DNA of 64,000 nt, from positions 992,001 through 1,056,000 of the forward strand of contig OZ220741.1 of NCBI GenBank assembly GCA_965116885.1, in the 5' to 3' direction. The position numbers were made by a program, and so were the translations under genes. The notes under the pieces are model-generated. The model made no database searches. It saw only the letters and a list, made by a program, of their open reading frames with translations, and had not been told where the DNA came from. Of the stretch, positions 4,607 through 45,406 are shown one piece after another. The stretch comes from Candidatus Latescibacterota bacterium (lineage in GTDB: Bacteria > Latescibacterota > UBA2968). The stretch's first letter is position 1; every line of letters starts with the position of its first letter.

Positions 4607-5127
4607 CCATCCACCTCCTCATTGTCCCCCAGGACGGAGAGCAAAGACCGACACGCCAGACCCAGCCCCTGTAGCAAAAGCAGAACAAAACCCAGAGGAA
4701 TAGCCGCCTTGAGCACCCACCGCGCGGGCAGACCCCCCGGATTGGGTGACGTCTCCCCAATGTGAAAAGCACTAACCACAAAATACTGCGAACTCACAAT
4801 CACAATAATGCAAAACGGAATCAAAAACAGAACGCTACCAACCAGATTCACCCACGCCTTCTTACGGGCGGAAAACCGACTGTAAAACACATCCACGCGC
4901 ACATGCTGATCGTGCTTGAGCGAATACGCAGCCCCAAGCAAAAAAATAAGCCCGAACAAATGCCATTCCAACTCCTGAACAGCCACCAGGCTATTCTTCA
5001 ACAAATAGCGGGTAAAAACATCGTAACACACCACCGCCACCAGCACAGCGGTAAGCCACGCAATCGCCCTGCCAACGCGCTCATTTAAACCATCGACAAA
5101 TCGGATATATGCTCTTAAAACCTGCAA
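4603..5127 (-). CDS. dctQ: TRAP transporter small permease
   Basis: QELEWHLF, HVRVDVFY, GETSPNPGGL motifs; likely TTG start at 5127 after GAGGAGG. Confidence 0.92.
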   Translation of the reverse strand: MQVLRAYIRFVDGLNERVGRAIAWLTAVLVAVVCYDVFTRYLLKNSLVAVQELEWHLFGLIFLLGAAYSLKHDQHVRVDVFYSRFSARKKAWVNLVGSVLFLIPFCIIVIVSSQYFVVSAFHIGETSPNPGGLPARWVLKAAIPLGFVLLLLQGLGLACRSLLSVLGDNEEVDG

Positions 5128-5378: not shown

Positions 5379-6809
5379 ATGCCAAAACAACCGAACATCC
5401 TGCTCTTCATCAGCGACCAGCAGCGCACGGACACCTTGAAATGTTATGGCAACGACTGGATACAATCGCCGCATCAAGACGCATTGGCAGAACGCAGCTT
5501 CGTCTTTGAAAACACCTACGTCACCCAACCCGTATGCACACCCGCGCGCGGATCCCTCATGACCGGCCTGTACCCGCACAACCACGAATGCATGGTCAAC
5601 CGGGACATATTGCGCGACGAAATCCCATCCATCGCAGAAATGCTCCCCGACACCTATCGAAAAGCCATGTTTGGAAAATGGCACCTCGGCGACGACTCCG
5701 TGCGCCAGCACGGCTTTGACGAATGGATCAGCACAGAAGACGACCACCGCAACAAATACTCCCGCCCTGGCCTGCCCTTCAGCAGCTATTACTACTGGAT
5801 GAAAGAACAGGGCATAGAACCCCAAAACAACAGCGCCACCGGAGAAATCATCTTCTCACCGCGCCAGCGATCCCAACTCCCCGCAGAATACCAGATGGGC
5901 ACCTTCATCGCCAACCACTCCGAGCGATTCATCCGGGAAAACACACACCGCCCGTGGCTCCTCGTATTCAGCACATTTGAGCCACACCCCCCAATGACCG
6001 GACCCTACGACGGCATGTACGACCCCGATGCCCTGCCCGTTGGCCCCACCTTCATCAAAAAACCAGAAGGACACGCCTTATTTAACCGCGCCCGCGCAGA
6101 ACACTACCTCAGCAACAGGGTTGAAGGCCAGGACATGCGACAAGAACATTCCTGGCGAAAACTGCGGGCGCAATACTACGGCAACGTAAAAATCATCGAC
6201 GACGCCATCGGCCGCATGGTACAGGCACTGGAAGAAACCGGACAAATGGAAAACACCATCTTTGCCGTCACCAGCGACCACGGCGAAATGGCAGGCGACC
6301 ACGCCATGTTCGAAAAACGCGCATTCTACGAAGAATCCGCGCGCGTCCCCATGATCTTAAGCGTCCCCTATCTCACCCAGACGCAAAAGCGCATCGACGG
6401 CGTCTTTGGACACGCGGACCTGATCGCCACCCTCGTAGAACTCGCCAATCAGCCACTCCCAGACGCCCTCCCGGGCCGCCCGTGTGCCGATGTCTTAACC
6501 GGCGAGGCCGACCTGCGCGACCACACCGCATTCATGGAATGGAACGGCATTGGCGACCGCAACCTGGGCAACCCCAAAATCAACCTCATGGCCACCTTAC
6601 CCTGGCGCTGTGCCGTAACCGGAGACCGATGGAAACTCAACTTATGTGCCGGCGACCAGTGCGAATTATTCGACCTGAACAACGACCCCTATGAAGAAAC
6701 CAACCTCTTTGACGACCCGGCGCACCGCGACCGCGCGCGCGAAATCGCGGCTCGCATTCGCCTGTGGCAACACGAAACAAATGACCACGCGCCATTGCCG
6801 GCGGTATAA
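5379..6809 (+). CDS. Sulfatase (Cys-type, S1 family)
   Basis: PNILLFISDQQR, CTPARGSLMTG (CxPxR), GKWHLG, SDHGEM. Confidence 0.95.
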   Translation: MPKQPNILLFISDQQRTDTLKCYGNDWIQSPHQDALAERSFVFENTYVTQPVCTPARGSLMTGLYPHNHECMVNRDILRDEIPSIAEMLPDTYRKAMFGKWHLGDDSVRQHGFDEWISTEDDHRNKYSRPGLPFSSYYYWMKEQGIEPQNNSATGEIIFSPRQRSQLPAEYQMGTFIANHSERFIRENTHRPWLLVFSTFEPHPPMTGPYDGMYDPDALPVGPTFIKKPEGHALFNRARAEHYLSNRVEGQDMRQEHSWRKLRAQYYGNVKIIDDAIGRMVQALEETGQMENTIFAVTSDHGEMAGDHAMFEKRAFYEESARVPMILSVPYLTQTQKRIDGVFGHADLIATLVELANQPLPDALPGRPCADVLTGEADLRDHTAFMEWNGIGDRNLGNPKINLMATLPWRCAVTGDRWKLNLCAGDQCELFDLNNDPYEETNLFDDPAHRDRAREIAARIRLWQHETNDHAPLPAV

Positions 6810-11923: not shown

Positions 11924-12181
11924 TCAATAATGATAACGAGCCTGTAGAAAATTAATGCGCTCATGGGCGACGTGATAGACAATGCGGTGTTCGCGTGTCA
12001 AACGACGAGACCAGGTATTGCGGTCAAAGTATTTGAGTGGTTCTGGTTTGCCAATCCCTTTGAAAGGATCTCGCAGGATAGCTTCCACAAGTGTCAAGAC
12101 GCGAAGGGCTGTCTTGCGATCAGTTTGAACCCAATAGTGCAGGTCTGCACGAAATTCTGGATGAAAAACTGCATCACGCAT
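11924..12181 (-). CDS. yoeB: Txe/YoeB toxin
   Basis: DL.YW..DRK..DPFKGIGKPEPLK..WSRRLTREHRIVY..QARYHY. Confidence 0.95.
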   Translation of the reverse strand: MRDAVFHPEFRADLHYWVQTDRKTALRVLTLVEAILRDPFKGIGKPEPLKYFDRNTWSRRLTREHRIVYHVAHERINFLQARYHY

Positions 12182-12183
12182 TA

Positions 12184-12471
12184 TTATTCCAGCCCAACCT
12201 CTCGACGCAAGTCATCAACGGATTGAGCGGGTTCTGTTCCGGCTTTGGCTCGGTTTAGAGCAGTTGCCAATCGTTCCGCATTTTTAGGTGAACTGAGAAG
12301 ATGAGCGGTTTCTATAAGGCTGGAAAGCTCGGACGCAGAAATCAGAGCGACATCTTCATGCCCTCGACGAGTGATAATGACGTAATCATTGTCATCCGTC
12401 ACATCTTTGCAAAGACTGGCAAGCCTATCGCGTGCCTGAGTGCAGGTAAATGTCCTGGTCATATATTTCAT
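12184..12471 (-). CDS. yefM: Phd/YefM antitoxin
   Basis: ARDRLA..VIITRRG..SLIETAHLLSSPKNAERL. Confidence 0.93.
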   Translation of the reverse strand: MKYMTRTFTCTQARDRLASLCKDVTDDNDYVIITRRGHEDVALISASELSSLIETAHLLSSPKNAERLATALNRAKAGTEPAQSVDDLRREVGLE

Positions 12472-12598
12472 AATAATATCCTGCAAAAAAATGACGGGCG
12501 AGGCATGCCTCGCCCCTACACACTATATCCTTTACAGTACGGGCGAAAAATCTTTCGCCCCTCTTTTTCATCTGCGTTCATCTGCGTTCATCTGCGGA

Positions 12599-14068
12599 TC
12601 ACCCTTCACCCTTCCCACTTCTTCTCAACCCCATCATCTTCGACGCGATCTCGACCTCCTCGGCAAACGCCTCTGCCTCATCGTCATACGTATCAAACGG
12701 ATCGCGGAAACTCAAATGGAATTCATTCTCCAAATACACCGAATCCCAATCCACAATATACCGCACCCGATTTTGCGACAGCGTCTTCACCATCGCCGCC
12801 CGCGCCTTTGCCCGCGTATCAGCCGGAGGCGTCCCACAAGCCTCTTCAACGCGCTCATCCGTCAGCACCCGCTGCATCTTACCCTGCTGCACCAGATCAA
12901 AATACAACCCGCGATTGGGATCGATATTGTGATACTCCAAATCCAAACTCTGCAACCACGGATCGTTCCAGCTCAAATTCTCCGACTCGCGAAACGCATC
13001 CAACAACCACTTCTTAGCCACCCAATCCAAACGATCTGTCAACTGCATCGGATCGGACGCCAGATCATCAAGCGTGCGCTCCCACTCATCCAGCACCCAA
13101 TCTGACTCCTCATCCAAACCCCTCAAATGGCGTTGCGCCAAATCCAAATACGTGCGCTGTATATCAATAGCCGAAATAGACCGCCCATTCTGCCGGTCCA
13201 AAATCCACTTATGTGTCGGATCCCGCGAAATCTCCTTCAATGCCCACACCGGATCTCCCAGTTCCACATCCTGGGGAAAAATTTTGCGCTCTAAGAGATT
13301 CAGCACCATCGCAGTCGTACCAACCTTCAGAGCCGTCGCATACTCCGACATATTCGAATCGCCCACCAAAAGGTGCAAACGGCGGTACTTGCTGTGATCG
13401 GCCAGCGGTTCATCTCGCGTGTTGATAATCGCGCGAGAAAACTGAATCCACTGATAAATCTCTGTAACAATATGATCGGCACGCTGAGAAATCTGGAAAG
13501 AAATCGCATCCTCTGTATCGGCGGCTTCTCGCACATTTTGCCCATAATAATAAAAACTATCATCATAACTACCCACGCGACCTGCACCGCAAAAAATTTG
13601 GCGCGTCACCAAAAACGGCAACAACGCGGGAATAACAACCGTTGAAAACGGCACATTGCGCCTGACCAGATAATTTTCATGACAGCCAAACGTCGCACCC
13701 GTATAATGATCGATATTATTCTTCAAAAACGAAGCTTCTTTGGCCAACCCCAGCGCGTGCAATGCCCGATACAAAATACAATCGCCCGCCCGATCAAAAG
13801 CCACAATATCCCACAACCCCATACACTCCGGCGTGGCGTATTCCAGATGCCCCATATCGATATAAACCCGCCCCGCATTAAACAAAAAACCCCCATTGCC
13901 CGGGGGTTCATCCCGTCCGCGATAGTGAATATCTACAACCCCTATTCGGTCAACGTGAAAAATGTGATCCTTTACCTTCACCGAAATCGTATCTGGACTC
14001 ACAAAACCCTCGTGCTCGGGTGCCAAACACCCATACTCGGTTTCTATGCCAAAAATGCGATCTCTCAT
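12599..14068 (-). CDS. pafA: Pup/UBact-protein ligase PafA homolog
   Basis: RIFGIETEYG, GGFLFNAGRVYIDMGHLEYATPEC, GCHENY, INTRDEPLAD..YRRLHLLVGDSNMSE, LDWVAKKWL, DLEYH; no Dop loop. Confidence 0.92.
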   Translation of the reverse strand: MRDRIFGIETEYGCLAPEHEGFVSPDTISVKVKDHIFHVDRIGVVDIHYRGRDEPPGNGGFLFNAGRVYIDMGHLEYATPECMGLWDIVAFDRAGDCILYRALHALGLAKEASFLKNNIDHYTGATFGCHENYLVRRNVPFSTVVIPALLPFLVTRQIFCGAGRVGSYDDSFYYYGQNVREAADTEDAISFQISQRADHIVTEIYQWIQFSRAIINTRDEPLADHSKYRRLHLLVGDSNMSEYATALKVGTTAMVLNLLERKIFPQDVELGDPVWALKEISRDPTHKWILDRQNGRSISAIDIQRTYLDLAQRHLRGLDEESDWVLDEWERTLDDLASDPMQLTDRLDWVAKKWLLDAFRESENLSWNDPWLQSLDLEYHNIDPNRGLYFDLVQQGKMQRVLTDERVEEACGTPPADTRAKARAAMVKTLSQNRVRYIVDWDSVYLENEFHLSFRDPFDTYDDEAEAFAEEVEIASKMMGLRRSGKGEG

Positions 14069-14077
14069 GGGAACCTC

Positions 14078-14872
14078 TCAGTCTGCCTTGAACTGCGCCA
14101 GCGCGGGCGCAATTTCTTCTGCATCGACATTGCGGTACTTATTCTTCCCCAACTGCGACCGCCCCAGCACCACCGCCTCCACCTCCAGATCCACCAACTC
14201 CGTCTCAAGCACATCAGCCACATCGACCGCCCCGGCCACCTGCTCCAACGCGTCAGCATCTGTAGGCACCTCTTCCATCTTCCCAATCCATCGCCCTATT
14301 GCCCAGGCGCGAAGCGCAGCACCTGCGGCATCTGACAAAGACAACGCCCGCGTATCCAACCCCGACAACTCGCGCACCATCATCACATCCGCCTCCACAA
14401 CACCCCCCACAGCAACACATCCCTCGTGCCGATAAAACGCACCATCGTAATCCACCGTATAAAAAATCTGCGCCCCCTCCTGCCCATCCAACTCCGCCAG
14501 AAGCACCCGCGCCAAAAACGGAGACCTCACCACATCGTCAAACCCCGCCTTCATCGCAGGACCCAGACCAAAATACACAATCTGGCGCAACGTCACATCG
14601 TCCTCAGAATAATTAAACCCAATCGAATGCGCCATATCAATCGCAGCCTGCCTGAGCTTCTCGATATCCGTCGAATGCCCAATCGCCGCGAGCCCGATGC
14701 AATCGTACACCTCAAACACCTTTTGCTGACTCTGCGACAGCGTCAGCAACAAAATCCCATCCTCGTACCCCACACCCACAACCGGACTCCCCGTCCGAAT
14801 CTGATCTTCAATATACTCGCGCCGATTCGCAACAGCCTCTGCCCAGCGATACGGCTCATCTGACAACATCAT
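14078..14872 (-). CDS. prcA: 20S proteasome alpha subunit
   Basis: RREYIEDQIRTGSPVV..GILL..KVFEVYDCIG..DIEKLR; position in operon. Confidence 0.9.
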   Translation of the reverse strand: MMLSDEPYRWAEAVANRREYIEDQIRTGSPVVGVGYEDGILLLTLSQSQQKVFEVYDCIGLAAIGHSTDIEKLRQAAIDMAHSIGFNYSEDDVTLRQIVYFGLGPAMKAGFDDVVRSPFLARVLLAELDGQEGAQIFYTVDYDGAFYRHEGCVAVGGVVEADVMMVRELSGLDTRALSLSDAAGAALRAWAIGRWIGKMEEVPTDADALEQVAGAVDVADVLETELVDLEVEAVVLGRSQLGKNKYRNVDAEEIAPALAQFKAD

Positions 14873-15672
14873 GCGCGTCCCGCCTCCTCCCCATCCACAT
14901 ATTGAACGTAAAGCTCCCGCAACGCCTCGGTCTCGATCTCCGCCAGACCCGACGCCGTAATCGTCTTCACCGACGGAAAAATATCAGCCGACCGCTCGTA
15001 TCGACCCGTTGCCGAATCGTATTCTGACGCCGTATCCAGAAGCTGAAGCGCGTGCCCGATTGCCGCATCGCGATCCATCTCCACAAACCGCCGACCGCCC
15101 CAGCGATTCAAATAATACATCGCCCCGCGAATCGCCGGCGACCCCGACCCCGTCGTCGTAAAATCGGCACTCTCGAACTGCGCCCCCAGCGCATCGTAAA
15201 AATAAATTTTACCCCGCGCATCCACCTGGTCATACGTCGCAAAAATGGGAATCACAGCACCAATACCCTGCATCGCCATCGGCAAATTATCCTTAATCAA
15301 CAGCGACAACCGGCGCAACTTCGCCTGCAAACTCATCTCCTGAAGCAAACGACGGCGATAATACTGAAACGCATGCTCCAAAATCCGCGCGATCTCAAAC
15401 GCAATAGACGGCGATCCCGAAATCGCCATCACCGAATACGCATCCAGATCGATCACCTTATCCGCGCGGTCGTAAAGCACCATATTGCCCGCCGTAGCGC
15501 GGCGGTCGCCCGCAACGAGCACCCCATCGGCATATTGAAACGCCAGAATCGTCGTCGCATCCGTCGGCACAAAAGGCAAATCGCGCTCGGACTGAACATC
15601 GCCCAAATTCTCACCCGGGAACCGGTAGCCCGTCTGCCGCAGCAAATCGACAAAATCCCCACCCGATTGCAT
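14869..15672 (-). CDS. prcB: 20S proteasome beta subunit with 39-aa propeptide
   Basis: TTILA..AGDRRATAGN..ADK gives Thr1/Asp17/Lys33; GSGS and DSATG motifs. Confidence 0.95.
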   Translation of the reverse strand: MQSGGDFVDLLRQTGYRFPGENLGDVQSERDLPFVPTDATTILAFQYADGVLVAGDRRATAGNMVLYDRADKVIDLDAYSVMAISGSPSIAFEIARILEHAFQYYRRRLLQEMSLQAKLRRLSLLIKDNLPMAMQGIGAVIPIFATYDQVDARGKIYFYDALGAQFESADFTTTGSGSPAIRGAMYYLNRWGGRRFVEMDRDAAIGHALQLLDTASEYDSATGRYERSADIFPSVKTITASGLAEIETEALRELYVQYVDGEEAGRA

Positions 15673-15675
15673 AAG

Positions 15676-15867
15676 CTACTCGCCTGTACGCTGGCGATAA
15701 CGCCGCGCCTGATTGGGATCAACGCGCCGCATGCGCCGCAGCAAATCGCGCGTGTCTGGCCGCTCCACCTTCGGGCGTGCGGGACCACCATCGCCATCAT
15801 CACCCGGACCAGGACCTCCCGGATCAACTGGCTTCGTCCGTCGCTCAAACTGCAAGACCTTATCCAT
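15676..15867 (-). CDS. ubact: UBact ubiquitin/Pup-like modifier
   Basis: 63-aa disordered protein ending LLRRMRRVDPNQARRYRQRTGE (R[ST]G[EQ] terminus); lies between dop and prcB; AGGAGG RBS. Confidence 0.93.
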   Translation of the reverse strand: MDKVLQFERRTKPVDPGGPGPGDDGDGGPARPKVERPDTRDLLRRMRRVDPNQARRYRQRTGE

Positions 15868-15892
15868 TTACGGCCTCCTTGAAAAAATGTCT

Positions 15893-15976
15893 GACCCCTC
15901 CCCCGGCCCCTCCCCGAGACGGGGAGGGGAGACAGGATCCCCCCTTCCTCTCAGGAAGGGGGTTAGGGGGTAGGTC
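15893..15976. repeat. G/C-tract composite palindrome (copy 2), supplies dop stop codon
   Basis: Reverse complement of the 8636-8720 element; dop TAA at 15963-15965 lies inside it. Confidence 0.85.
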
Positions 15977-17498
15977 CTAATTCCTCCAACGCCTCTAAAA
16001 AACTCTCCAGCGTCTCCGAATTATCGAGCACCTCATTATAACGCGCCACCCGCCCTGCATCCACCAATAATTTCATATCCACTGCATGCTGGCGGCCATT
16101 GCGCTTAAACACAATGCGATCCCAGTTAATCGACGACACATAATCGCCGAACTTCTCCAAACTGCGCCCTCGAAAATACGCCCGCGTACCCGAAGGTGGT
16201 TCCGACATCGCCGTAGCCACCTCATCATCGCCCACCAGACGCACCATCTGCCCCTGCGACTCCATCAAATAATACAACCCCGCATCCCGATCCACATTGC
16301 TATACTCCAGATCCTGACTCTGCATCCAGAACAAATCATCGGGATTATCCCACGCCAGATTCTCCACCTCGCAAAAACTATCGATCAACCACTTCTTTGT
16401 CACCCAATCGCACACACCCACCAGATCCATCGGATCGCGGCTCAACTTCTCCAACACATCGCCCCACGCCGACAACACCCAATCCGTCTCCTGATCCCGC
16501 CCGGCAAACTCGCGCCGTGCCAAATTCAAAAACGCATCCTGAATCTCAACCGCGGGAACGAGGCGATGGCCGGGACCCTCCACCTCAACCAACCACGCAT
16601 GCGACTGATCCCGCGCGATATTCTTCATCGCCGCAATCGAATCCTTCAGCCGATAATCCGGCAAACAATCCGCCTCAATCAAATCGATCACCAGCGCCGT
16701 AGTCCCCACCTTAAGCGCCGTAATATACTCCGACATATTGGCATCGCCCACAATCACATGCAACCGGCGATAGCGCGCTGCATCTGCGTGGGGTTCATCG
16801 CGCGTATTCACAACCGGACGCTTGTGCATCGTATCCACACTCGCGATCACCTCAAAAAACTCTGCGCGCTGCGACAACTGATAAATCGGTGCGCGATCCT
16901 CCCGCTCAACCCCCACCTTGCCGGCCCCGCAAAAAATTTGCCGCGTGGGGAAAAACAGCAACAACCCCTTCAATATACGCTCGAAAGGCACCGAGCGATC
17001 CATCAAATAATTCTCGTGACACCCATAGCTATGCCCTTCAAAATCCGTATTGTTCTTATACATCCGCACAGTGCCCTGATCGAGCATCTCCGTCCGCCGC
17101 TGCGCGCAAATATCCACAATGCGCTCCCCCGCCTTATCCTGTGCCACAAGCTCGAACAAACTCGTACACTCACCCGTCGAATACTCCGGATGCGTATGAT
17201 CGTTGTAAAACCGGGACCCATTGTAAATAATCAAATCACTCTTCAACTCTTTAAACGGAATTTTCCGCTTGCGATCCTGTTGCAAATGCACCTTTTCATC
17301 GACATCATTCAACAGATTTTTAACCTCAAACCCCCGCTCATCCCGACGGGGATTCTCCAGCCGATAATCCCACAACGGAACAAAAGTCCCTTGCTGATAG
17401 CACCGAATCAACTGCATCGACTCTTCGACCACATCGACCCTATCCACCTCGTCAATCGTGATTCCGTATTCTGTTTCTATACCGAATAAGCGCGTCAT
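15963..17498 (-). CDS. dop: Deamidase/depupylase Dop homolog
   Basis: RLFGIETEYG, Dop loop WDYRLENPRRDERGF, NGSRFYNDHTHPEYS, GDANMSE; start ATG 17498 just after the arc stop. Confidence 0.92.
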   Translation of the reverse strand: MTRLFGIETEYGITIDEVDRVDVVEESMQLIRCYQQGTFVPLWDYRLENPRRDERGFEVKNLLNDVDEKVHLQQDRKRKIPFKELKSDLIIYNGSRFYNDHTHPEYSTGECTSLFELVAQDKAGERIVDICAQRRTEMLDQGTVRMYKNNTDFEGHSYGCHENYLMDRSVPFERILKGLLLFFPTRQIFCGAGKVGVEREDRAPIYQLSQRAEFFEVIASVDTMHKRPVVNTRDEPHADAARYRRLHVIVGDANMSEYITALKVGTTALVIDLIEADCLPDYRLKDSIAAMKNIARDQSHAWLVEVEGPGHRLVPAVEIQDAFLNLARREFAGRDQETDWVLSAWGDVLEKLSRDPMDLVGVCDWVTKKWLIDSFCEVENLAWDNPDDLFWMQSQDLEYSNVDRDAGLYYLMESQGQMVRLVGDDEVATAMSEPPSGTRAYFRGRSLEKFGDYVSSINWDRIVFKRNGRQHAVDMKLLVDAGRVARYNEVLDNSETLESFLEALEELGPTP

Positions 17499-17499
17499 A

Positions 17500-19146
17500 T
17501 CACACCACGCCATGCCCGTGGGCGCGTCGTTCTCGCCTGGGGCGAATCGGTGCTGCGCGCACCACATTTTCCGGATCGTAATCCAGCAACTTCAACCAAT
17601 CCTCTGTATTATCCGTCGGCGGGAAAATCTCATTTTCGCTATACTCCGTCTCAATCCCCGCGAGCAAATCGTCAAACCCAATCCCGTCTTCCGCGCCAGA
17701 AGCAATACACCGCTTAATCGCAATCTCCTTCGCACGCTGCGCAATAGACTCGAGAATGGCCCCACTACACAGATCTCCGCGACTCAACACTTCCTTCCGA
17801 CCGCTTCTAAGCGTCACCTCCAAAAAGCGCGTATCATCGCGCCTGGCATATATCTCTGCAATCGCGCGCGCCACCAGATCGTCAACTGCTGCCTGCACAT
17901 TGCCCTCATGCGCGTTCAACACATCTTCTGCAAGCGGCAAATCAGCCGTCAAATAAATACCCAAAATCTCGCGCGCCGCATCCATATCCGGTCGAATAAC
18001 CTTGATCTTGCGATCAATTCTCCCCGGACGCAAAATCGCTGGATCGATCAAATCGGGACGATTGGACGTCAAAATAATCACCACATCTTGCAGAGACTCG
18101 ATCCCATCCATCTCGGAACAAAACATCGGCACAACCGTATTTGAAATATTGTGCGACCGAATTGCCCGCCGCGTCCCCAAAACCGACTCTGCCTCGTCGA
18201 TAAACACCACCGGCAAAAACCCCTCGCGCCGCTTCTCCCGCGCCTGGGAGAAAATCTCGCGCACCTTGCGTTCGGACTCTCCCAACCACATATTCAAAAT
18301 CTCGGGACCCTTAATATGCATAAAGCACGCCTTGAGATTCAGGCCATCTTCCTGCACCTGCCGCTCCAGATTGTACGCCGTCGCCTTCCCAATCAGCGTC
18401 TTGCCGCACCCCGGCGGACCGTACAGCAAAAACCCCTTGGGCGTACTGTACTGAAACCGCTTAAACAACTCCGGATGCAACACCGGCATCTCAATCGTAT
18501 CTTTAATCGCCTGAATCGCATCCTGTTGTCCCCCGATCTTCTCCCACGGCAAATCGGGAACTTCCTCCAGATAAAAATCCTTAACCTCGGAATGCGGCAT
18601 CTTCTCCAGCGCCACGCGAAAATGCGGATCAATCCGCACCTCTTCGCCCGCCTTCAAAGCCTCGGCCTCCAGGTCTGCCCCTCGCAGCAAAACATGCGTC
18701 TGCGAACCGTGTTCTTGCCCCACCTGCAAACGCCCATCGTCCAGCACATCGACAATTTTGCCCACAGTCCCCGACGGAGACTCGCCCATATCGCCCACCA
18801 CGGCAAACGCCTCATTGACCAGCACGCGCGTACCCACCCTCAACCTGCGGTCATCCAGCCGCGAATCCACATTCGCATAATACTCCGCCCCGCCCACCGT
18901 AAGATACGCGATACCATTCTCGGGCGGTGCCAACAGCGTCCCCACCCGATTGGCCGGTGCCGTCACCTTCTCCAGCGCCCCTTCCAGTTCCACAATCGTG
19001 CGCCTCGCCTCCTCAAACGTAATCTCATCCTCCTGAAGTTGCCGGCGCAACTGGTACAACAGGGGCCGCCGTCTATCCGTCTCATCCATCGTCATCAAAA
19101 TCTGATCGATAATCGACAACGACTGAAACGTATGCTGCATATCCAC
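17500..19146 (-). CDS. arc: Proteasomal AAA ATPase ARC/Mpa homolog
   Basis: N-terminal coiled coil and OB region, LEEVPD, GPPGCGKT, IKGPEILN..GESER, FIDE, SNRPDLIDPAILRPGRID, SGAILESI. Confidence 0.95.
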   Translation of the reverse strand: MDMQHTFQSLSIIDQILMTMDETDRRRPLLYQLRRQLQEDEITFEEARRTIVELEGALEKVTAPANRVGTLLAPPENGIAYLTVGGAEYYANVDSRLDDRRLRVGTRVLVNEAFAVVGDMGESPSGTVGKIVDVLDDGRLQVGQEHGSQTHVLLRGADLEAEALKAGEEVRIDPHFRVALEKMPHSEVKDFYLEEVPDLPWEKIGGQQDAIQAIKDTIEMPVLHPELFKRFQYSTPKGFLLYGPPGCGKTLIGKATAYNLERQVQEDGLNLKACFMHIKGPEILNMWLGESERKVREIFSQAREKRREGFLPVVFIDEAESVLGTRRAIRSHNISNTVVPMFCSEMDGIESLQDVVIILTSNRPDLIDPAILRPGRIDRKIKVIRPDMDAAREILGIYLTADLPLAEDVLNAHEGNVQAAVDDLVARAIAEIYARRDDTRFLEVTLRSGRKEVLSRGDLCSGAILESIAQRAKEIAIKRCIASGAEDGIGFDDLLAGIETEYSENEIFPPTDNTEDWLKLLDYDPENVVRAAPIRPRRERRAHGHGVV

Positions 19147-19225
19147 ATAGTCCTGAAGAAAATCTTCAGGTGACTTTCTCTGACGATCAGAATCATTGGT
19201 ATTGATAGCTGACCCCCTCTCTGTC

Positions 19226-19378
19226 TGGATCAGGATTTACAGGATTTAAGGATGGACAGGATAAAGGCAAAAGCAAAACCTCTGTCTGAATCAGGATTTA
19301 CAGGATTTAAGGATGAACAGGATGAAAGGCAAAAGCAAAACCTCTGGATCGCGGCTCAACCCCATGCCGCGATAACGG
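19226..19378. repeat. AGGAT-periodic repeat (two tandem units) plus CTGGATCGCGG hairpin
   Basis: atcaggatttacaggatttaaggatgRacaggat..aaaggcaaaagcaaaacctctg twice; related copies near 5149, 33843, 34099, 46128, 56952. Confidence 0.85.
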
Positions 19379-19460
19379 ATACTATCATTCTTAATTCCTA
19401 ATTAATACCATATCTCAAAACCCGTGTCAAGCTGTGAGACGGGCGAGGCATGCCTCGCCC

Positions 19461-20393
19461 CTACTCCTTCTCCAACTTCTCTAACTTGCGCTCCATATCA
19501 ATTTTAACCTCAGCGACAATATTGGCAATCGGATCCCTCTTCCCCGCTTTAATAACCACGGGCTTATTGATATCAAAATGCACCTTGTGCTCTATCACCA
19601 GCCCGCGCGTCGCATCGATCACCCAGGACCCTCCGCCTGTACCCTTCCCACTGTAATACAAAGAAGCGGCACTCACCTCAATCCATCCCGCGTACGCCAC
19701 CTCACTATCCTCATCAATAGACACCTCCACGCGCCCCTTCTCATTCTTAATACTCTTCACCTCATAAGTACTCTTGATTTTAATCTCCGAATCGCGTCCC
19801 AGCATATCCATACTCGCAAACGGACGCCAAAAAACGCGCTCACCCGTCCAGGTATCGCCCTTATTAACCGGTCCCTCTGGCAAAACCGGTGCAAACGCCG
19901 GCATCGCCCCCTGGTACATATCCGTAATCAAATCCTGTCGCTCCACGCGAAACGCGGGAAAATCTGGCTCGAACTTCTGCACCCTGCCCTCGGGCGTCAC
20001 CTGCCAGAAAAAAACCCTGTCATTAAACATATCAAACGTAAACGGATACTGTTCATACGTCTGCTTCTCACCCAAAAAAATCGCTGCACTCGCCCCCTTT
20101 TTAATCTCAGCGCGAACACCCATCACCCCTTCGGGAATGGTCCGCCCCGGCAATGCCTGCGGCACAACCACCTCTTCATGGCTGCGCCACTCATTATCTA
20201 TAATCACGCGAATATGCCCGCTCTGCATCACAATCTGCTCGCCCATATTGCTGTAATACTCCACCCGAAACTTGTGCTTATATCGCGCCTTGCGCCCTTC
20301 TGGGAATTTCAACGTCAACGCTGTGGGCTGTGCCCAACAATCGGCGGCAACACCGACGAGCAATCCGAGAACAACAGTTAATTTCCAATGCAT
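19461..20393 (-). CDS. Secreted beta-rich hypothetical protein
   Basis: Signal peptide MHWKLTVVLGLLVGVAADCWA; LPEGPVNKGDTW motif; TAG stop supplied by a REP. Confidence 0.75.
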   Translation of the reverse strand: MHWKLTVVLGLLVGVAADCWAQPTALTLKFPEGRKARYKHKFRVEYYSNMGEQIVMQSGHIRVIIDNEWRSHEEVVVPQALPGRTIPEGVMGVRAEIKKGASAAIFLGEKQTYEQYPFTFDMFNDRVFFWQVTPEGRVQKFEPDFPAFRVERQDLITDMYQGAMPAFAPVLPEGPVNKGDTWTGERVFWRPFASMDMLGRDSEIKIKSTYEVKSIKNEKGRVEVSIDEDSEVAYAGWIEVSAASLYYSGKGTGGGSWVIDATRGLVIEHKVHFDINKPVVIKAGKRDPIANIVAEVKIDMERKLEKLEKE

Positions 20394-20431: not shown

Positions 20432-20938
20432 CTAATCTATTTCGATTCTTTTAAGCACTTCTCGACACAGATCGGCTGATATCCAGATATCGTCATGAGC
20501 GATGATGATCTCCATCAGGGTATTGACTTCAAGAAGGGAAATCAAATTTTCGCGGTAAGCCTGAACAAGTACACCCAATGTCCCTTTGACCTTCAACCCG
20601 AGTTTTTTGGCCTCTTCTCTCGCCTTTAAATCATCGAGTAGAACCAGGCTATCTGCTTCTTGTGTACTGAGATAAATGACTTCCTTTTCTCCCGAATCCA
20701 AAGATAGTGAAGCGATCTCTAATGGCAAATCAGCTACATCCTCAACGATGAGTTGCTTTTGACGGATTGCTATTTCGGCCATCCTCGCATCAATGTGACC
20801 TTGTTTCCCCCCCGCGATAACGACCTCTCGATGAACCTTTGTAGAGATACTTACTTGTCCAAATAGTCGAAAAAGGATATCCAAAGCACCTGTTTTACCC
20901 AGTGCCATCAGAGGGCCAGAATTACAAAAAACCTTCAC
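20432..20938 (-). CDS. DUF3368 PIN-domain toxin
   Basis: VFCNSGPLMAL, LDSGEKE, LLDDLKAR, GTLGVL. Confidence 0.9.
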   Translation of the reverse strand: MKVFCNSGPLMALGKTGALDILFRLFGQVSISTKVHREVVIAGGKQGHIDARMAEIAIRQKQLIVEDVADLPLEIASLSLDSGEKEVIYLSTQEADSLVLLDDLKAREEAKKLGLKVKGTLGVLVQAYRENLISLLEVNTLMEIIIAHDDIWISADLCREVLKRIEID

Positions 20939-21198
20939 TCCAGTTCTTCCTGAACCTGGGTTTTACTCCAGCGAGGTTGTATTCCAACGATCCGAGCCTG
21001 ATGTACCATCTCCTGCTCTGTTAGATCGGCGAGTTCTGCTGCTCTACCAATTGATACAAGCCCGCGCTGGTAGAGCAACAGGGCTTCCTGGATTTTGACC
21101 TGAGACAACCCGAGTAACAGAAGCTCTCCCAACCGGTCTTGATAGGCATCCAACTCCGCCATTTTTTGATCGGGAATTTCGACTATTGTTTTCGCCAT
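20935..21198 (-). CDS. UPF0175 family antitoxin
   Basis: ALLLYQRGLVSIGRAAELA; overlaps the DUF3368 gene. Confidence 0.85.
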   Translation of the reverse strand: MAKTIVEIPDQKMAELDAYQDRLGELLLLGLSQVKIQEALLLYQRGLVSIGRAAELADLTEQEMVHQARIVGIQPRWSKTQVQEELE

Positions 21199-21220
21199 CC
21201 GTAAGATCCTTATTCTCAAT

Positions 21221-33334: not shown

Positions 33335-33835
33335 CCTTCGACCTCCTAAAAAAAAGTCAGGATCGAGTAAATGATTGTTTACGAACGTTTTAATTCTACT
33401 GCGAAACTGCATCCCCTCGCGCTGTTCATCGCGCTGTTTAAGACCGGACCCCAGAACAGGGTGAGAGCCGCGACCTTTGCGACTTAGCGGAGAAGCACTA
33501 CCGTATTCCAAATTTATATCCCTCCCTTCAACAGACTTGTTTTCATATATCTTAATTCCTTTCAATACAACAAGTTACGAACAACTATGAATTAACCATT
33601 TTATTCAAGTACCTCCTTCCAAAAACAGCCTAACACACACCAATGCAACATCCTTACAATAGCGTTCAGGAGTAATGCGTTAGGAGAAATCAACACCCCT
33701 TCTGTTTTGTTTGATGTTTGGTTCATGGGAACTGCTCCACATTAATATATGACGGGCTAATTATATGCAATCAAAAACATAGTGTCAAGCGTTTTTTCTT
33801 CGGTAATGATATGATAATAAAAAAGAAAGGCAAAG

Positions 33836-34170
33836 GCAATCAGAATCAGGATTTACAGGATTAAAGGATGGGCAGGATAAAGGCAAAAGCAAAGGCAAAG
33901 GCGAAAGGCATCCGCAGATGACGCAGATAACGCAGATGAAAAGGCAAATACAATCAGAATCAGGATAAAAGCAAAACCAACGGCAACACCTCTGGATCGC
34001 GGGTAACACCACCCCGCGATGACGGGAACCTGTCCCATAGAGGCCTTGTTCCTATGTAATATAATATAAGGAATATAAGGGAAGAACAAAAGCAAATAGG
34101 ATCAGGATGGGCAGGATAAGAGGATGGACAGGATGAAAGGCAAAGGCAAAAGGCAGAGGCAAAAGATAAA
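33836..34170. repeat. Dense low-complexity repeat patch (AGGAT, AAAGGC, CGCAGAT units and CTGGATCGCGG hairpin)
   Basis: Multiple caggat/aaaggc units; ccgcagatgacgcagataacgcagatg; cctctggatcgcgggtaacaccaccccgcgatgac. Confidence 0.8.
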
Positions 34171-34172
34171 AA

Positions 34173-35798
34173 TCAAAAGTCTATGAAGCGGATACCAAGA
34201 TCAGACGGGGGTTTTGGCGCATTGGGATTGACGCGCGCCATGATCTGTTGATCCAAAATGTCAGTGATGATCGGATTGTACGCCTCCCATTGACGGATCG
34301 GCGCATCATTCTCGTCGCGGCGCCAGATCTGGATATCGCCGAATTGCTTCTCCACTGTATAGCCGAGAATGGGATTGGCGAGACTGGTAGCCGCCGACAC
34401 AATATGGCTGACCGAGGTTGAAATCACCGCCGTATTATTTATCGCACGCCCTGTAAACGCATCGTAAAACGGTATCTCCCGGTGCAAATAATAATAGCCG
34501 GGGAGATTATAATAGCGTCTATCAACCTGCCACACACCCTGAACACCGGGCGTGCGGGCGAGGTAGCGATACGCGGCAAAAATCGGATCCTGATCGCGGA
34601 TGAAGGCGAATTTACCTATCTCTTTGGAAAAAGCGCGATACACCTGAGCCTGAGAAGGCAGTGCGTTTAGAATACCGCATAGTGAAATTGCCGCGAACAA
34701 AACCCCCACCAATCCCCAAACGCGCACATGCCCACCAAATCGCGCCACCACATCTGCACCAACCAAAAGCCACAGCGGAACAACCGCAAAAACGAACCGA
34801 TACTCCTTGTGCGCCTGCACAGAATGCATGAGCAACACCAGAGCGACCATCGCCAAAACAAACCCGTAACGCCGCACATCGCGCAGTGCGACAACCATAC
34901 ACAGCGCACCCAACCCGACACTCGCGAGCAAAAGCCACCATAAAAACTGGTATCCCGGGGTCTCGCCAGTACGGTCATGTGCGAGATTGAAACGGATATT
35001 CGTAATATAGGAATGAAACAAACCGCCATCCCACGTCATCGCATCGAACACACCCACCGCCAGCAGAAACACACCCGCTGCCAGCGCGAGATGAACCTTC
35101 TTCTCCGTCCTGAAAAAAAACACACCCAACAGCAACAACGCGATTGGCGCGTACTGCACGCGTATCGCCGCCACCAGCACCGCCACCAGCGCCATCAGCC
35201 ACACCGTCCTTCTCCTATCCACCGACGACCGCACACACAGCACCAGCAACGCCATCAACAGAGCCGTCGCCACAAACTCCGTCATCGGCTTGTGGGCAAA
35301 CCCCGCCAACTCATACCAGAACGCACCTGCTACCAGCGCCACCCGCGCCGATAGCTCCCCAAAATGCCGCCGCGCAAAAAAATACATCCCCACTGGAATC
35401 AGCAGAGAAATTGCACAAAATATCAGCTTGACGCCGCCCACATACCAGAACGGCTCACCGAGTCCCATTAGATCAAACACCTTCAACACCCCGGCAACCA
35501 GACCGGGCACCAGCCATGAACGCGCCCCGTAAAAAAACTCCCAATACGTAACCCCATTCCCAAAAACCAGGCGATGCGCCGGCTCCAAATACTGCATCAC
35601 TTCATCAGGATGCAAAACAAAATCGCCACCCAGCGCAATCGCCGCGCGCACAGCGAACGCCAGCGCGAGCACCGGCAACAAAAACTTCCACGGACGCTCA
35701 TCGGACGCCTGCAAATGCAACAAAGCACCTACCACAGAGACAGGCGACCTCTGCCCTCTCTCCCGGCGCGTCCTCCTTGTCTTCCTTCTCTTCGCCAT
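34173..35798 (-). CDS. GT22 (PIG-B/Alg9-like) membrane mannosyltransferase
   Basis: PDEVMQYLEPAHRLVFG.G..YWEF..GARSW and AHKEYRF match PIG-B family motifs; multi-TM. Confidence 0.85.
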   Translation of the reverse strand: MAKRRKTRRTRRERGQRSPVSVVGALLHLQASDERPWKFLLPVLALAFAVRAAIALGGDFVLHPDEVMQYLEPAHRLVFGNGVTYWEFFYGARSWLVPGLVAGVLKVFDLMGLGEPFWYVGGVKLIFCAISLLIPVGMYFFARRHFGELSARVALVAGAFWYELAGFAHKPMTEFVATALLMALLVLCVRSSVDRRRTVWLMALVAVLVAAIRVQYAPIALLLLGVFFFRTEKKVHLALAAGVFLLAVGVFDAMTWDGGLFHSYITNIRFNLAHDRTGETPGYQFLWWLLLASVGLGALCMVVALRDVRRYGFVLAMVALVLLMHSVQAHKEYRFVFAVVPLWLLVGADVVARFGGHVRVWGLVGVLFAAISLCGILNALPSQAQVYRAFSKEIGKFAFIRDQDPIFAAYRYLARTPGVQGVWQVDRRYYNLPGYYYLHREIPFYDAFTGRAINNTAVISTSVSHIVSAATSLANPILGYTVEKQFGDIQIWRRDENDAPIRQWEAYNPIITDILDQQIMARVNPNAPKPPSDLGIRFIDF

Positions 35799-35858
35799 TC
35801 CTGCCCTACTCTCCAATAAACGTTCAATGCGGTAAACACGTATGCTATTTGCCAACAG

Positions 35859-37691
35859 CTATTCTTTTCGGCGCAAGATATGTACACCCCACTCCCTGGG
35901 CAAGGGTGTAAAAGCGTGCATATTCAACTCGGGCCGCTGTGTCGGATAACGATGAACATCCGGTTCCGCGGCTACGACATAGTGCGCCTTGACCAGTTCC
36001 CAGTAATCTTCCTTTAATGTGCCAAAAACCACGATCCAGTCAGGGAGATACTCTCCAACCCAGATGTAGGGCGCATCCAGAGCCTCGATTCTGGCACGCG
36101 GCAAAGGCGAATCCTCGTCGAGCACGTAACAGAACAACACATGGTGACCCGTCGTAAAGATCAGTGCCTCCCGGTCGGCAAAACCCGACACGTACACCAG
36201 ATCGTCCTGCTCGGCATGAGTCAGCAAATAGTCGGAAACCACCCGAATGGAATCGCGGTATGGCCGATGCACTTCACGGACAAACTCAAAAAAGTGAAAA
36301 CCAAGCGTGCGCTCGCCAGTAAACAGCATGGTCATGTTAAACGGATAAGCCCCGGCACTGGTGAACAGCAGAATGCCAAGTGCAACCACACCGGCGATAA
36401 CGTGCCGACGCCATACCCATTCCACAAACAGCCCCTTCATCGCCAACAGCAACGGCAAAGCCCCTACGTAATAACGCAAATCGGCAAACGGGTGCGCCCA
36501 TACTGCCTGGCTCGACAGTGCTGCCGAAAACAACGCGAACAATGTACCCATCAAGATGATCTTTCCCGCAGCCACCAGCGGCAAGTCGTTTCCGAGGATC
36601 TTTTCAGTAATACCTGCACCAGTGTCTGTTCGCTGTCGCCTTGCCTGTCGCGATACCCTGGCCGCCCGCTTCCGTCGGACCTGATAGGCGAGCACTATCA
36701 TACCTGTAAACCACAAAAATACCGGCCATGAAATCCAATCAGCAGTGAACAAATCCCGGATATATATCCAGATTCTCAACAGCAACAAAGGCATTGCACC
36801 TCGATATTCCCCCAGGTTCGTAACGCCCGTGAAAGCGAGAAACCCGCTGCGCTCACCGCCGATAACGCCCAGCCAATAGAGGTACCCGGCTCCCACCGCA
36901 ACTACAGCCACACCGCAGATAGCGAACAACACCCACTCTCGCAGTGCAGTCATACGAGCGCGAAAAAGCAAATGATACGTCCCCAGCGAAAGCATTGTCG
37001 CCGCCCCACCAGCGTAGTGGTTAAAAAACGACAATGCCGCCACCGCCGCAATAGCAGGCAGGTACGCCAGACGTCGGCTCTGCCAGTAACACTCGTACAA
37101 ATAAAAAATAAGTATCAGCGCGAGCACCATCACCGAAAAGTAGCGAGACTGGCGGAAATACAACAACAACTGCGCCGACCAGGCAGCGAATAAAAAAATA
37201 AAGAACATCAACCGCGGGTAGTTCGACAGGTACTGGCGCAACAGCAGATAGAACACGCCGAGAGCGACGACACCTATGACAGCATGTACAATGCGCGCGC
37301 CTATCTCGTTAATGCCGAACACCGCGAACCCGGCAGCATTCAGCACATACATCAGCGGCGGCCAGGGATCGCGCAGATCATCATTGAGCGAGCGTCCATT
37401 CGTGCCGCAGACCAGATTGCGCCCATCCCAACCGAGAATATCGCCCTGCTGCAGCAAATTTTTGCCTATAAAGGCGGGAGGCGCCTCGTCGTGCCACAGC
37501 GCGGCGTAATCCAGATTGACCAGGCACAAGTACGCCGCGACCAGCAGCACGCCTATGGACGCCGCAGTATATGGCGCGGCGCGCAAACGGTCTGATAGTG
37601 ATACAAGTCTTGTCAATATATTCTCCTCATCCACCTGAATACCAGACGGACCGCATCGTAGCGCAGTTGTTCCATTCAACCTACCGCTCAT
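35859..37691 (-). CDS. GT-C glycosyltransferase (PMT_2/ArnT-like)
   Basis: LWHDEA after TM1, PPLMY, G.NEIGAR, QSRYFS; ATGA overlap with upstream gene. Confidence 0.8.
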   Translation of the reverse strand: MSGRLNGTTALRCGPSGIQVDEENILTRLVSLSDRLRAAPYTAASIGVLLVAAYLCLVNLDYAALWHDEAPPAFIGKNLLQQGDILGWDGRNLVCGTNGRSLNDDLRDPWPPLMYVLNAAGFAVFGINEIGARIVHAVIGVVALGVFYLLLRQYLSNYPRLMFFIFLFAAWSAQLLLYFRQSRYFSVMVLALILIFYLYECYWQSRRLAYLPAIAAVAALSFFNHYAGGAATMLSLGTYHLLFRARMTALREWVLFAICGVAVVAVGAGYLYWLGVIGGERSGFLAFTGVTNLGEYRGAMPLLLLRIWIYIRDLFTADWISWPVFLWFTGMIVLAYQVRRKRAARVSRQARRQRTDTGAGITEKILGNDLPLVAAGKIILMGTLFALFSAALSSQAVWAHPFADLRYYVGALPLLLAMKGLFVEWVWRRHVIAGVVALGILLFTSAGAYPFNMTMLFTGERTLGFHFFEFVREVHRPYRDSIRVVSDYLLTHAEQDDLVYVSGFADREALIFTTGHHVLFCYVLDEDSPLPRARIEALDAPYIWVGEYLPDWIVVFGTLKEDYWELVKAHYVVAAEPDVHRYPTQRPELNMHAFTPLPREWGVHILRRKE

Positions 37692-39580
37692 TCCCGCCAC
37701 ATAATCTCGGTAATAGCGAGACCGCCGCCGTTGAGATCGTCCTTACTCTGGTGCGGATTGGCAACGCGAAAGCGCACGCGCACATCGCCGGACAACTCCG
37801 ACAGCGGAGCGCATACATTCTTACTCGTCTTATTGTCCAGATCAAACGACTGCGGTGACACATCAGCGTAAGAGATAGCGACTTTCAGCGGATCCTCTGG
37901 CGGATGGAACGGCGCCAGGACAGAGAAGCACAGTGTTGCATCGCTATTTGCATCTACCAGCACACTTGAGCTTTGCCCGATACTCAGCGGACCGAGGTTG
38001 GTACCGACCCAACCCGCCTTGAACGCAGCAGAATCTTCCCCATCCTCAGACAGCTTCTGCAGTTCAAAAGGCGTATCGTCCAACGCGGCAATAGTATTTT
38101 TGCCCACAATATAAATATTTGCCTGTGGATAGTAATAAACGAATCGGTCATCCACGTACTGAAAGTATCGCTGAAACCCCGCCGAAAAGGTGATCACACG
38201 CTCAGCAGCATCAAAGTATTGGAACTTAGAATATTCGTGAGACAGGACATTGTGCGGCCGTACATCCGTCAGAACCAGTGACGCCACCGCCTCGTCCATA
38301 ATAAACTCGCCCATCGTGTTATCGACAATAAGCCCGTGGGTTATATCGGTAGCGTGGTCAACCGGCGCAATGTTATCCATATACGAAAAACTGAACCCAT
38401 CGCGTATGACATTCTCGCGGACATGGACATTACCCGTCAGCGTGGCAGTCAGAGAAACGCACAGAACCAACTGCAGCAGGGCGGACATCAGAATATGGCG
38501 TCGGTCCGAGTGTTTCCGCGCAACATCCGGCTGCGTCATCTCCCGCAGTAAGGCGGACACCAGAGGCCAGAACATCACCACCATCACCGGTGCCATCGTA
38601 TAGGGATAAAAGGTACCAGCCAGCGGGTCCTTCGCCATCAAGTGCCACAACACCCACGGCAGAACGGCAACAACTGCGACCAGAGGCAGCAGGCTCCGTT
38701 GCACAACAGCGAGCAGAGCCAGTGCCAACATCGGAATGTACACGTACTCGCGGTCGGACGCGATAAAAGCCAACCGTTCCAAAATTAGATCCACAGTCAG
38801 GTGCGCGTAAGGCGGCGAGCCGACAAACTTCCACACAATCGTGTCGTCGCTCGGAGAAAAGGATTGCCGCACCAGAAACGCCACAACGCTGTACCCAATA
38901 CAAATGAGAGACACCAGCCCGAAAAACCGCCAGATATCCCGTCGTTCCCGCACGCACCACCAGAAGTACGCGGCCAGCAGAATGAACAGACCGAACCCGT
39001 GCAACCCCGCGTCCTCCCGGACACTGAGCAGCCCGGCCAATGGCAAAAAGGGCAACCACCACAAACGCCGATATTCACGCAGACGTATCCAAACCGCGAT
39101 AAACAAGGCGATAAACGCGGGCATCGCCATCTCCACATGGGGAAAACTCGTCGATGTGAACACGAACGGATTAAGCCCTGTAGCGACAGATACAACCGCG
39201 AGCAACCAGCAATTCATCGCCCTGTAGCCAATCAAAAAAACCGCCAGACTGACCATCCCTGCCCAGGCACCCTGCACAATTGAAAAATAGACCTGCTCGG
39301 ACAAAAAAGATGAAAATATCTGGTAAATCCATGAAAGAGGAAAAAAGAAAAGAAACACATGACGCCCCAGCATCGGAACATCTTCTATACTGGGAATACC
39401 CGTGACCTTCGGCGTCAGAGCATGGGTTGCCAGATAGGCAAACCAGCCAGCATCGTAAAGCGGGGCACCGTGAACGTAAAAGAGGTGAAGCAATGAATTG
39501 GCAATGACCACCTGCGGCAAAACAAAACACACCGCCGCGAGCAAAGCAGTTCGATAGCCGAATCGATTAGTCAAGCACAC
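37688..39580 (-). CDS. GT-C-like multi-TM protein (DUF2079-like) with C-terminal extracytoplasmic domain
   Basis: YDAGWF, FPHVE, VREDAG motifs; many TM segments; in operon with other GT-C genes. Confidence 0.6.
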   Translation of the reverse strand: MCLTNRFGYRTALLAAVCFVLPQVVIANSLLHLFYVHGAPLYDAGWFAYLATHALTPKVTGIPSIEDVPMLGRHVFLFFFPLSWIYQIFSSFLSEQVYFSIVQGAWAGMVSLAVFLIGYRAMNCWLLAVVSVATGLNPFVFTSTSFPHVEMAMPAFIALFIAVWIRLREYRRLWWLPFLPLAGLLSVREDAGLHGFGLFILLAAYFWWCVRERRDIWRFFGLVSLICIGYSVVAFLVRQSFSPSDDTIVWKFVGSPPYAHLTVDLILERLAFIASDREYVYIPMLALALLAVVQRSLLPLVAVVAVLPWVLWHLMAKDPLAGTFYPYTMAPVMVVMFWPLVSALLREMTQPDVARKHSDRRHILMSALLQLVLCVSLTATLTGNVHVRENVIRDGFSFSYMDNIAPVDHATDITHGLIVDNTMGEFIMDEAVASLVLTDVRPHNVLSHEYSKFQYFDAAERVITFSAGFQRYFQYVDDRFVYYYPQANIYIVGKNTIAALDDTPFELQKLSEDGEDSAAFKAGWVGTNLGPLSIGQSSSVLVDANSDATLCFSVLAPFHPPEDPLKVAISYADVSPQSFDLDNKTSKNVCAPLSELSGDVRVRFRVANPHQSKDDLNGGGLAITEIMWRE

Positions 39581-39592
39581 ACCCCACCTCCA

Positions 39593-40822: not shown

Positions 40823-41058
40823 TGCAACCTTTCTTTTTTGCAATAAAAAACAAACGCCTCACGGGTCGGCAAAAGACCTGGGAGGCACTTGAAGAAAGAT
40901 AGAACCTTCTGGATCGCGCGGGACGGCACGGGGGCCGTCCCCTACAACGGCAGGCCACGATGACACCTTAGAGGCAAAGGCGAACCTCTGGATCGCGGAT
41001 GACGCCACCCCGCGATGACGGTGATGGATTATTGGCGTCATGCGTCAGAACAACCGCG

Positions 41059-41379
41059 TCATGCATCCAACGCTTGCTCAAATGCGTCAAGATTGGACAC
41101 CTGGATCGCTGCACGATGCAACTGCTTGAGACGTTGCAGATCGTCAATCGCGGCAAGGCGAGCAGATAGGGGGTGCGCTTCGCTCAGGTCAAATCGAATC
41201 TCCAACACGTCGAGGATATCTTCGATGGCACGTTGCCTGACCCCCTGCTCAATGCCTTGCTCAATGCCTTGCTCAATGCCTTGCTCAATACCTTGCTCAA
41301 TGCCTCGTTCAATACCTTCCTCAATACCTAATTGCTTGATGTATTGTGCAAACGACGATTCGCGCATAATGGCATCCAT
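41059..41379 (-). CDS. Putative intragenic small protein (RpnS-like, 106 aa)
   Basis: In-frame ATG at 41379 preceded 5 nt upstream by AGGAGG (41385-41390). Confidence 0.65.
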   Translation of the reverse strand: MDAIMRESSFAQYIKQLGIEEGIERGIEQGIEQGIEQGIEQGIEQGVRQRAIEDILDVLEIRFDLSEAHPLSARLAAIDDLQRLKQLHRAAIQVSNLDAFEQALDA

Positions 41380-42012: not shown

Positions 42013-42305
42013 GTGGAATGCCCAGGGTCTGATGGATGAGTTTTACACGCAACAGTCAGACCCTGAGCAAATATCAGGCCAACGTCACAGAAATTGAATG
42101 ATAAATTGTATGGACGGAAATTCAAATAGCCGCATCAGGCTTTTAATATGCTGGATGGCACCTTTAACTTAAATGGAGGGATTGCTTTTGGAGATATATA
42201 AATGGAACGCGCTGGGAGACAAAAGTGTACGTTTTGATCTATAGAGGAGGGGATAGGGTGAAAGATATGTGCTTTTATTTTTATACTGGATCGCGGCTAT
42301 AAGAT

Positions 42306-45170: not shown

Positions 45171-45406
45171 TCTTATTTCCCCCTATCATTCGCAAGCGTT
45201 TGTTTGCAATTTTGGGAAAATAAGACGGGATTGGCAAAAAGCAAGGCCACTCAGATAGAATACGAGCAAATTATGCTTTTGTGCATTTTAATGCTTTTAT
45301 GCATTTCATTAAAAGCCTGTGAAGCGGATACGATCAAAAAAAAATACGGGGACCGCCCCCTACAATATTGGAACCGTCCCCATATATTATAATGATTATA
45401 ACGCAA

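Follow-up and report, generated by a model that had tools for sequence, protein, structure and literature searches.

The name UBact was reportedly given by Lehmann et al. in 2017 (PMID 28087277) to a tag encoded in conjugation-proteasome loci of Gram-negative bacteria, and their list of phyla is said to include Poribacteria and Handelsmanbacteria. A C-terminus of the form R-[ST]-G-[EQ] is reported as the defining motif of this tag. In this study, the UBact-proteasome operon arc-dop-ubact-prcB-prcA-pafA was analyzed in a stretch of 64,000 nucleotides (the window) from Candidatus Latescibacterota bacterium (GenBank assembly GCA_965116885.1, contig OZ220741.1, positions 992,001 to 1,056,000), and was compared with other UBact loci and with the Pup-proteasome system of Actinobacteria. 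A 2008 paper had already noted systems of the Pup type beyond Actinobacteria (PMC2588565), and no bench study of UBact was found in literature searches, most subscription papers being outside their reach.

Gene order and membership of the UBact kind

A total of six intact open reading frames (ORFs) were identified on the minus strand at 12599-19146, and in NCBIfam and Pfam these matched the models for pup_AAA, Dop, UBact, 20S beta, 20S alpha and PafA. The genes and the one repeat between them are as follows.

arc, 17500..19146, minus strand, ARC/Mpa-type proteasomal AAA+ ATPase of 548 amino acids (TIGR03689; PF00004, PF16450, PF17758)
dop, 15963..17498, minus strand, Dop-type deamidase/deconjugase of 511 amino acids (TIGR03688)
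intergenic repeat in the dop-ubact spacer, 15880..15962, no strand assigned, a genome-wide repeat outside the system
ubact, 15676..15867, minus strand, UBact tag of 63 amino acids (NF033388, PF20513)
prcB, 14869..15672, minus strand, 20S beta subunit (TIGR03690)
prcA, 14078..14872, minus strand, 20S alpha subunit (TIGR03691)
pafA, 12599..14068, minus strand, presumed UBact ligase of 489 amino acids (PF03136)

The preliminary description of a complete operon of this order outside Actinobacteria is borne out by the six ORFs, their order and their families. Based on the family matches, the gene order of Pup operons, the catalytic residues, the ligase-type signs and the conservation described below, the locus is probably an intact UBact-proteasome operon that works like actinobacterial pupylation.

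As in other UBact loci, the tag passes both UBact models (NF033388, 80.2 bits against a cut-off of 35; PF20513, 70.4 bits against 27.8), ends in R-T-G-E and is encoded among genes for Dop, PafA, ARC and the 20S subunits; close homologues in Latescibacteria are named "ubiquitin-like protein UBact" by NCBI, and a Handelsmanbacteria ligase is 74% identical to that of the window. No feature was found that distinguishes the window copy from other UBact operons. With the actinobacterial Pup-proteasome system the locus shares the gene order (found also at a Nonomuraea locus), the fold, the catalytic residues of Dop, PafA and PrcB, a lysine of the alpha subunit and a tag ending in Gly-Glu/Gln. It differs from that system in its basic tag without a Pup match (Pup is acidic), in the Val/Ile end of the UBact-family ARC as against GQYL of actinobacterial ARC, in the alpha-loop and hinge of the ligase, in the frequent loss of the equivalent of R26 in the alpha subunit, and in enzymes that score under the equivalog cut-offs; among the six proteins, only UBact exceeded its curated NCBIfam cut-off. 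Judged from these sequences, every feature examined places the locus within the UBact kind, and it would work like the Pup-proteasome system without belonging to it.

The intergenic gaps along arc-dop-ubact-prcB-prcA-pafA are 1, 95, 3, -4 and 9 nucleotides. The ORF-finder start of Dop at 17567 would overlap arc by 68 nucleotides, and in an alignment with the solved Dop the match begins at the Met at 17498, most likely the true start, which gives 511 amino acids. With this correction prcB/prcA becomes the only overlapping pair among the genes described earlier as closely spaced or overlapping. The 95-nucleotide gap between dop and ubact contains the repeat listed above, with 26 BLAST matches in the genome; the same spacer measures -7 to 341 nucleotides in 23 of 24 relatives and 1755 in the remaining one.

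Each operon gene is present in one copy, and PF03136 genes number two in total, in the 5.56-Mb genome (one contig, 98% complete). A Pup gene (PF05639) was not matched in the host genome, the positive control being matched in Corynebacterium glutamicum. PafE/Bpa gave no match in a search whose control also failed, so that absence does not follow. Sigma-70 promoters showed no excess at the operon (five found, 6.5 expected). A PAC2-family gene (proteasome assembly chaperone-like) was observed far from the operon, at 3190090-3190734 of the host contig.

The tag, Dop and the presumed ligase

The C-terminus of UBact reads RYRQRTGE, and ubact is preceded by a GGAGG ribosome-binding site. In NCBIfam and Pfam scans the protein matched UBact models only and no Pup model. 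Among the best 120 of 257 homologues the C-terminus is RTGE in 96, RTGQ in 22 and RSGE in one, a further record is frameshifted, and the pattern R-[ST]-G-[EQ], to which the RTGE of the window conforms, fits 119 of the 120. The ending RTGE, unlike that of Pup, was correctly noted before; as a special trait of this copy it was rejected, since it is the norm of the family. The TGE remnant expected on lysines after trypsin is likewise correct and was computed as +287.11 Da. Codon differences among 16 close relatives comprise 56 synonymous and 12 non-synonymous distinct changes in ubact, and this synonymous excess argues that the ORF is not a chance frame.

The last 26 residues carry a net charge of +5 in the window UBact and of +3 to +6 in all 119 homologues counted, one frameshifted record of the 120 being left out; the corresponding value is -7 in a single Nonomuraea Pup. 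Residues 360-390, which we presume to line the tag groove, have a mean charge of -5.4 in five UBact ligases and -6.3 in seven UBact Dops, against +0.3 and -0.3 in six plus six actinobacterial enzymes. From the basic tail and the acidic segment in both enzymes, a tag-binding surface opposite in charge to that for Pup is therefore predicted.

A UBact gene was also observed on a phage contig of 70 kb in IMG/VR (5953-6129 of the examined piece). Its product ends in RSGQ and scores 67.3 bits with NF033388. The gene lies between those for the portal and for head morphogenesis and stands alone, since genes for Dop, PafA, ARC and the 20S subunits are all missing from the 12 kb examined. Two viral scans gave no second clear case, and GenBank phages gave none. 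The record MT835496.1, deposited as an unverified phage, carries actinobacterial-type arc, dop, pup and pafA with the arc and dop frames broken or fused, and is possibly a chromosomal fragment.

The window Dop, scanned from the 17567 start, scores 447.9 bits with TIGR03688, not reaching the cut-off of 492.3. It aligns end to end with Dop of A. cellulolyticus (387 bits, versus 254 for PafA) and retains the Dop loop (WDY at 43), D100-H101-x-H103, the Dop-specific His and the alpha-loop Thr223, the last corresponding to the Thr that binds the final residue of the tag in A. cellulolyticus Dop (PMC8599861). Actinobacteria with a Glu-ended Pup such as C. glutamicum keep Dop as a depupylase (PMC3511204). 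By analogy, the window Dop is likely to be mainly a UBact deconjugase, as had been proposed, because UBact already ends in Glu; deamidation would be needed in the part of the family whose tags end in Gln.

The protein encoded at the pafA position scores 485.9 bits with PF03136 and, in both cases under the cut-off, 378.5 bits with TIGR03686 (cut-off 551.3) and 370 bits with the Dop model TIGR03688. It retains GIETE, D71, H74, E76, H130, R212 and R218 and is without the full Dop loop; R212 and R218 are the equivalents of R201 and R207 of C. glutamicum PafA, both required for pupylation (PMC10465538; bioRxiv 10.64898/2026.04.10.717840). Read against Table 1 of PMC7947786, PafA-type residues are found at F61, A78, H199, S211 and D440, and the Dop His is absent. 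Also absent is the Thr that clamps the last residue of the tag in Dop and that the window Dop possesses. Its alpha-loop is HIVTEIYQWIQFS, and the PafA alpha-loop (Ser-Ser-Ala-Thr-Thr-Arg) is not present. The YQWIQF loop was found in 119 of the 120 closest ligase homologues, and the same type in 77 of 80 fetched loci, more distant ligases differing again; since it stands in place of the substrate-contacting Thr-Thr-Arg, a different substrate preference is predicted. The predicted model (predicted local distance difference test score, pLDDT, 94.4) has the Dop/PafA fold, with Z 48.3 and a root-mean-square deviation (rmsd) of 2.2 over 433 aligned residues for 4b0r, and Z 43.8 and rmsd 3.5 over 448 for 4bjr; an earlier model from 65 close homologues was too poor (pLDDT 56.7) and was not used.

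What weighs against a pupylation-like working lies in the model scores, in this protein and in the contact between ARC and the 20S particle (next section). The five enzymes all score under the curated cut-offs of their models, which were built on actinobacterial proteins, and the position of residues 360-390 along the tag groove, being presumed, is counted on the same side. The protein at the pafA position scores 305 bits against the solved Dop and 255 against PafA, and its predicted model ranks the Dop structure first. It lacks two alpha-loop threonines common to Dop and PafA, the loss of which slows PafA (PMC7947786), as well as the PafA Val insertion and the substrate-contacting Ser-Ser hinge. 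The nearness to Dop in sequence and fold scores would suit a gene product that is no lysine ligase, being instead a second hydrolase, a bifunctional enzyme, or one of two paralogues between which the reactions are split otherwise; so would a 14-residue insert at the Dop-loop site (47 versus 33 residues), the grouping of the protein with its own Dop in trees, and an alpha-loop modelled as strand and loop with no helix, the alignment of that model being Dop-rich. We nevertheless hold this to be very unlikely, in view of the PafA-type residues at function-linked sites, the missing Dop His and Thr, the location of the gene where pafA stands in such operons, and the genome itself, which has no further PF03136 gene and thus no alternative ligase.

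The origin of the presumed UBact ligase was examined in trees. The 149 cluster representatives were reduced to 101 of near-full length, and the resulting 120-row FastTree did not settle the placement of the ligase. A second, unrooted tree of 42 hand-picked sequences, with the Dop-loop and alpha-loop columns removed, contains a branch (support 99/98) that parts UBact ligases and UBact Dops from actinobacterial Dop and PafA; in the literature, Dop and PafA form two clean clusters (PMC7947786). Holding all ligases as one clade was rejected under LG+C20 by the approximately unbiased (AU) test (p-AU 0.0165, identical with some rows picked after seeing the tree and with motif-defined rows only), and was not rejected under LG+F+G4 (p-AU 0.34 and 0.15). 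The signal is mosaic, residues 241-420 grouping by tag (p 0.0015) and the N-terminal (p 0.28) and C-terminal (p 0.055) parts leaning to grouping by function; strict diagnostic columns, one by tag and two by function, are too few to decide. Such a mosaic could arise from co-adaptation to one tag, from gene conversion between neighbours, or from separate origin with convergence, and the trees give a hint of a separate origin of the UBact ligase that depends on model and region. A wider proposal would see in the UBact pathway no transferred copy of pupylation but a second tag-and-destroy system that was built separately, with a ligase derived from a Dop-like ancestor independently of actinobacterial PafA, a basic tag unacceptable to Pup enzymes, an aromatic substrate loop and a Tyr-free Val/Ile opening of the proteasome; this we regard as unlikely.

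ARC and the 20S proteasome

ARC scores 471.4 bits with TIGR03689, below the cut-off of 504.75, and its best solved relative is Mpa (E 2e-102). It has OB domains, Walker A at 243, Walker B at 314 and a C-terminus ending in HGVV. PrcB (172.2 bits with TIGR03690, not reaching 191.9) begins with a 39-residue propeptide followed by the catalytic Thr40 (Thr1), and mature actinobacterial beta chains align to it from residue 40. Asp56 and Lys72 are also present, and T40, D56 and K72 are taken to be the Thr1, Asp17 and Lys33 triad. Residue 39, preceding the catalytic Thr, is Ala in the window, Gly, Ala or Ser in relatives and Gly in actinobacterial beta chains, and this Ala may affect autoprocessing. 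PrcA scores 82.8 bits with TIGR03691, under the cut-off of 139.05.

The contact between ARC and PrcA holds the remaining opposing points. Mycobacterial gate opening needs GQYL (PMC8142254; PMC12288473), the C-terminus of both actinobacterial ARCs fetched (Nonomuraea and Tsukamurella), and the window ARC is without it. In the actinobacterial system, K52 of PrcA binds the terminal carboxylate of the activator and R26 contacts its Tyr (bioRxiv 10.1101/249060); the R26 equivalent is Thr27 in the window, and Arg occupies this column in 2 of 90 alpha subunits. A penultimate Tyr was found in none of 83 ARC C-termini (85 closed frames minus two frameshift fragments). These losses would be expected if proteins are tagged while the gating of the 20S particle is not done by ARC itself. 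UBact would then drive unfolding or remodelling, as happens in Corynebacterium, which has no proteasome, or a different activator would be required; non-degradative pupylation is known in C. glutamicum, and wild-type Mpa is itself described as a poor degrader in vitro. The tail is, however, not random, ending in Val or Ile in 83 of 83, with Val or Ile before it in 79; the carboxylate-binding Lys, retained as Lys51 in the window by alignment to solved alpha chains, is present in 90 of 90 alpha subunits, Arg lies one column before the R26 equivalent in 79 of the 90, and prcB and prcA are kept in the operon. An ARC that does not open the particle is therefore unlikely, and the simplest reading of the two alignments would be a matched change on the ARC tail and on the alpha-subunit side.

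For a pupylation-like working, the following order of events is proposed. With ATP, the enzyme at the pafA position would place a phosphate on the gamma-carboxyl of Glu63 in UBact and then join it to target lysines, and Dop would mainly remove and recycle UBact. Once bound to the tag, ARC would unfold the conjugate and pass it into the PrcA/PrcB 20S particle, docking by its Val/Ile-ended tail paired with the conserved alpha-subunit Lys and making no Tyr contact. It is in this sense that we infer UBact ligation, deconjugation and degradation at this locus.

Conservation, surroundings and meaning of the operon

UBact was found in 41 of 41 genomes (the host and 40 relatives) and, across the phylum, in 128 of 168. 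Of 511 confirmed GTDB stretches, the best 80 came mostly from Latescibacterota (the closest) and Poribacteria, with a few from Gemmatimonadota; the host is non-actinobacterial, and loci with 92-100% identical UBact are labelled Latescibacterota. All six genes stand in the order of the window at 75 of these 80 loci (73 exactly, one with a split arc, one with an extra-frame match), the other five comprising three cut by contig ends, one without prcA and pafA, and one lone ubact. The operon is near-core in its class and standard in the lineage. A lone second ubact was observed in the genome of a relative, off the operon, between genes for a response regulator and a sigma-70 factor (4849-5022 of the fetched piece).

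Parts of the operon were present in 18 RNA-library runs; ranked by the share present, the top ten are sponge metagenomes. Contigs from four RNA-library studies cover most of the operon, one contig spanning the whole of ubact; of 30 bins, 29, 30, 25 and 26 were covered in the operon and 21, 18, 18 and 16 in a comparison stretch (33600-51400), the runs having been picked by operon content and uncovered holes being uninformative. Because these contigs give neither strand nor level, they may include carry-over of DNA, and they are a weak sign of expression.

A yefM/yoeB toxin-antitoxin pair (11924-12486) lies directly downstream of pafA on the same strand. A REP-like (repetitive extragenic palindrome-like) palindrome flanks the operon on both sides, at 12493-12519 and 19438-19464 (four exact copies, about 21 genome sites), and two further abundant intergenic repeats lie at 19219-19346 and 12567-12600 (about 30 and 68 genome sites). 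Such flanks might mark an island that was acquired recently or is decaying and has no function, a very slight possibility that conservation already contradicts, given the intact frames, the presence of UBact in every close relative examined and the synonymous excess in ubact; the flanking repeats, moreover, are genome-wide, and for the palindromes this led to rejection of the status of mobile island.

Other genes were observed farther away. Upstream of arc, a UPF0175/DUF3368 pair (20432-21219) is presumably a module of antitoxin and PIN-type toxin. The segment 22533-33565 encodes three large secreted-type proteins in tandem, all with FlgD-Ig tails and two with cohesin domains, and six ORFs of 290-630 amino acids at 35859-45392, beside an Alg9-like mannosyltransferase gene, gave no Pfam match at E 1e-5.

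The value of the locus is that of an intact gene set for a catalogued system, known at this site from sequence. This copy adds little by itself, and it is the family-wide differences in the ARC tail, the ligase loop and the charge of the tag's tail that are worth experiment. If these differences hold, the UBact family would provide a bacterial proteasome activator that works without the GQYL/HbYX tyrosine, a ligase/tag pair orthogonal to PafA/Pup that could serve proximity labelling in two channels, and possibly a case of a protein-tag ligase that originated a second time.

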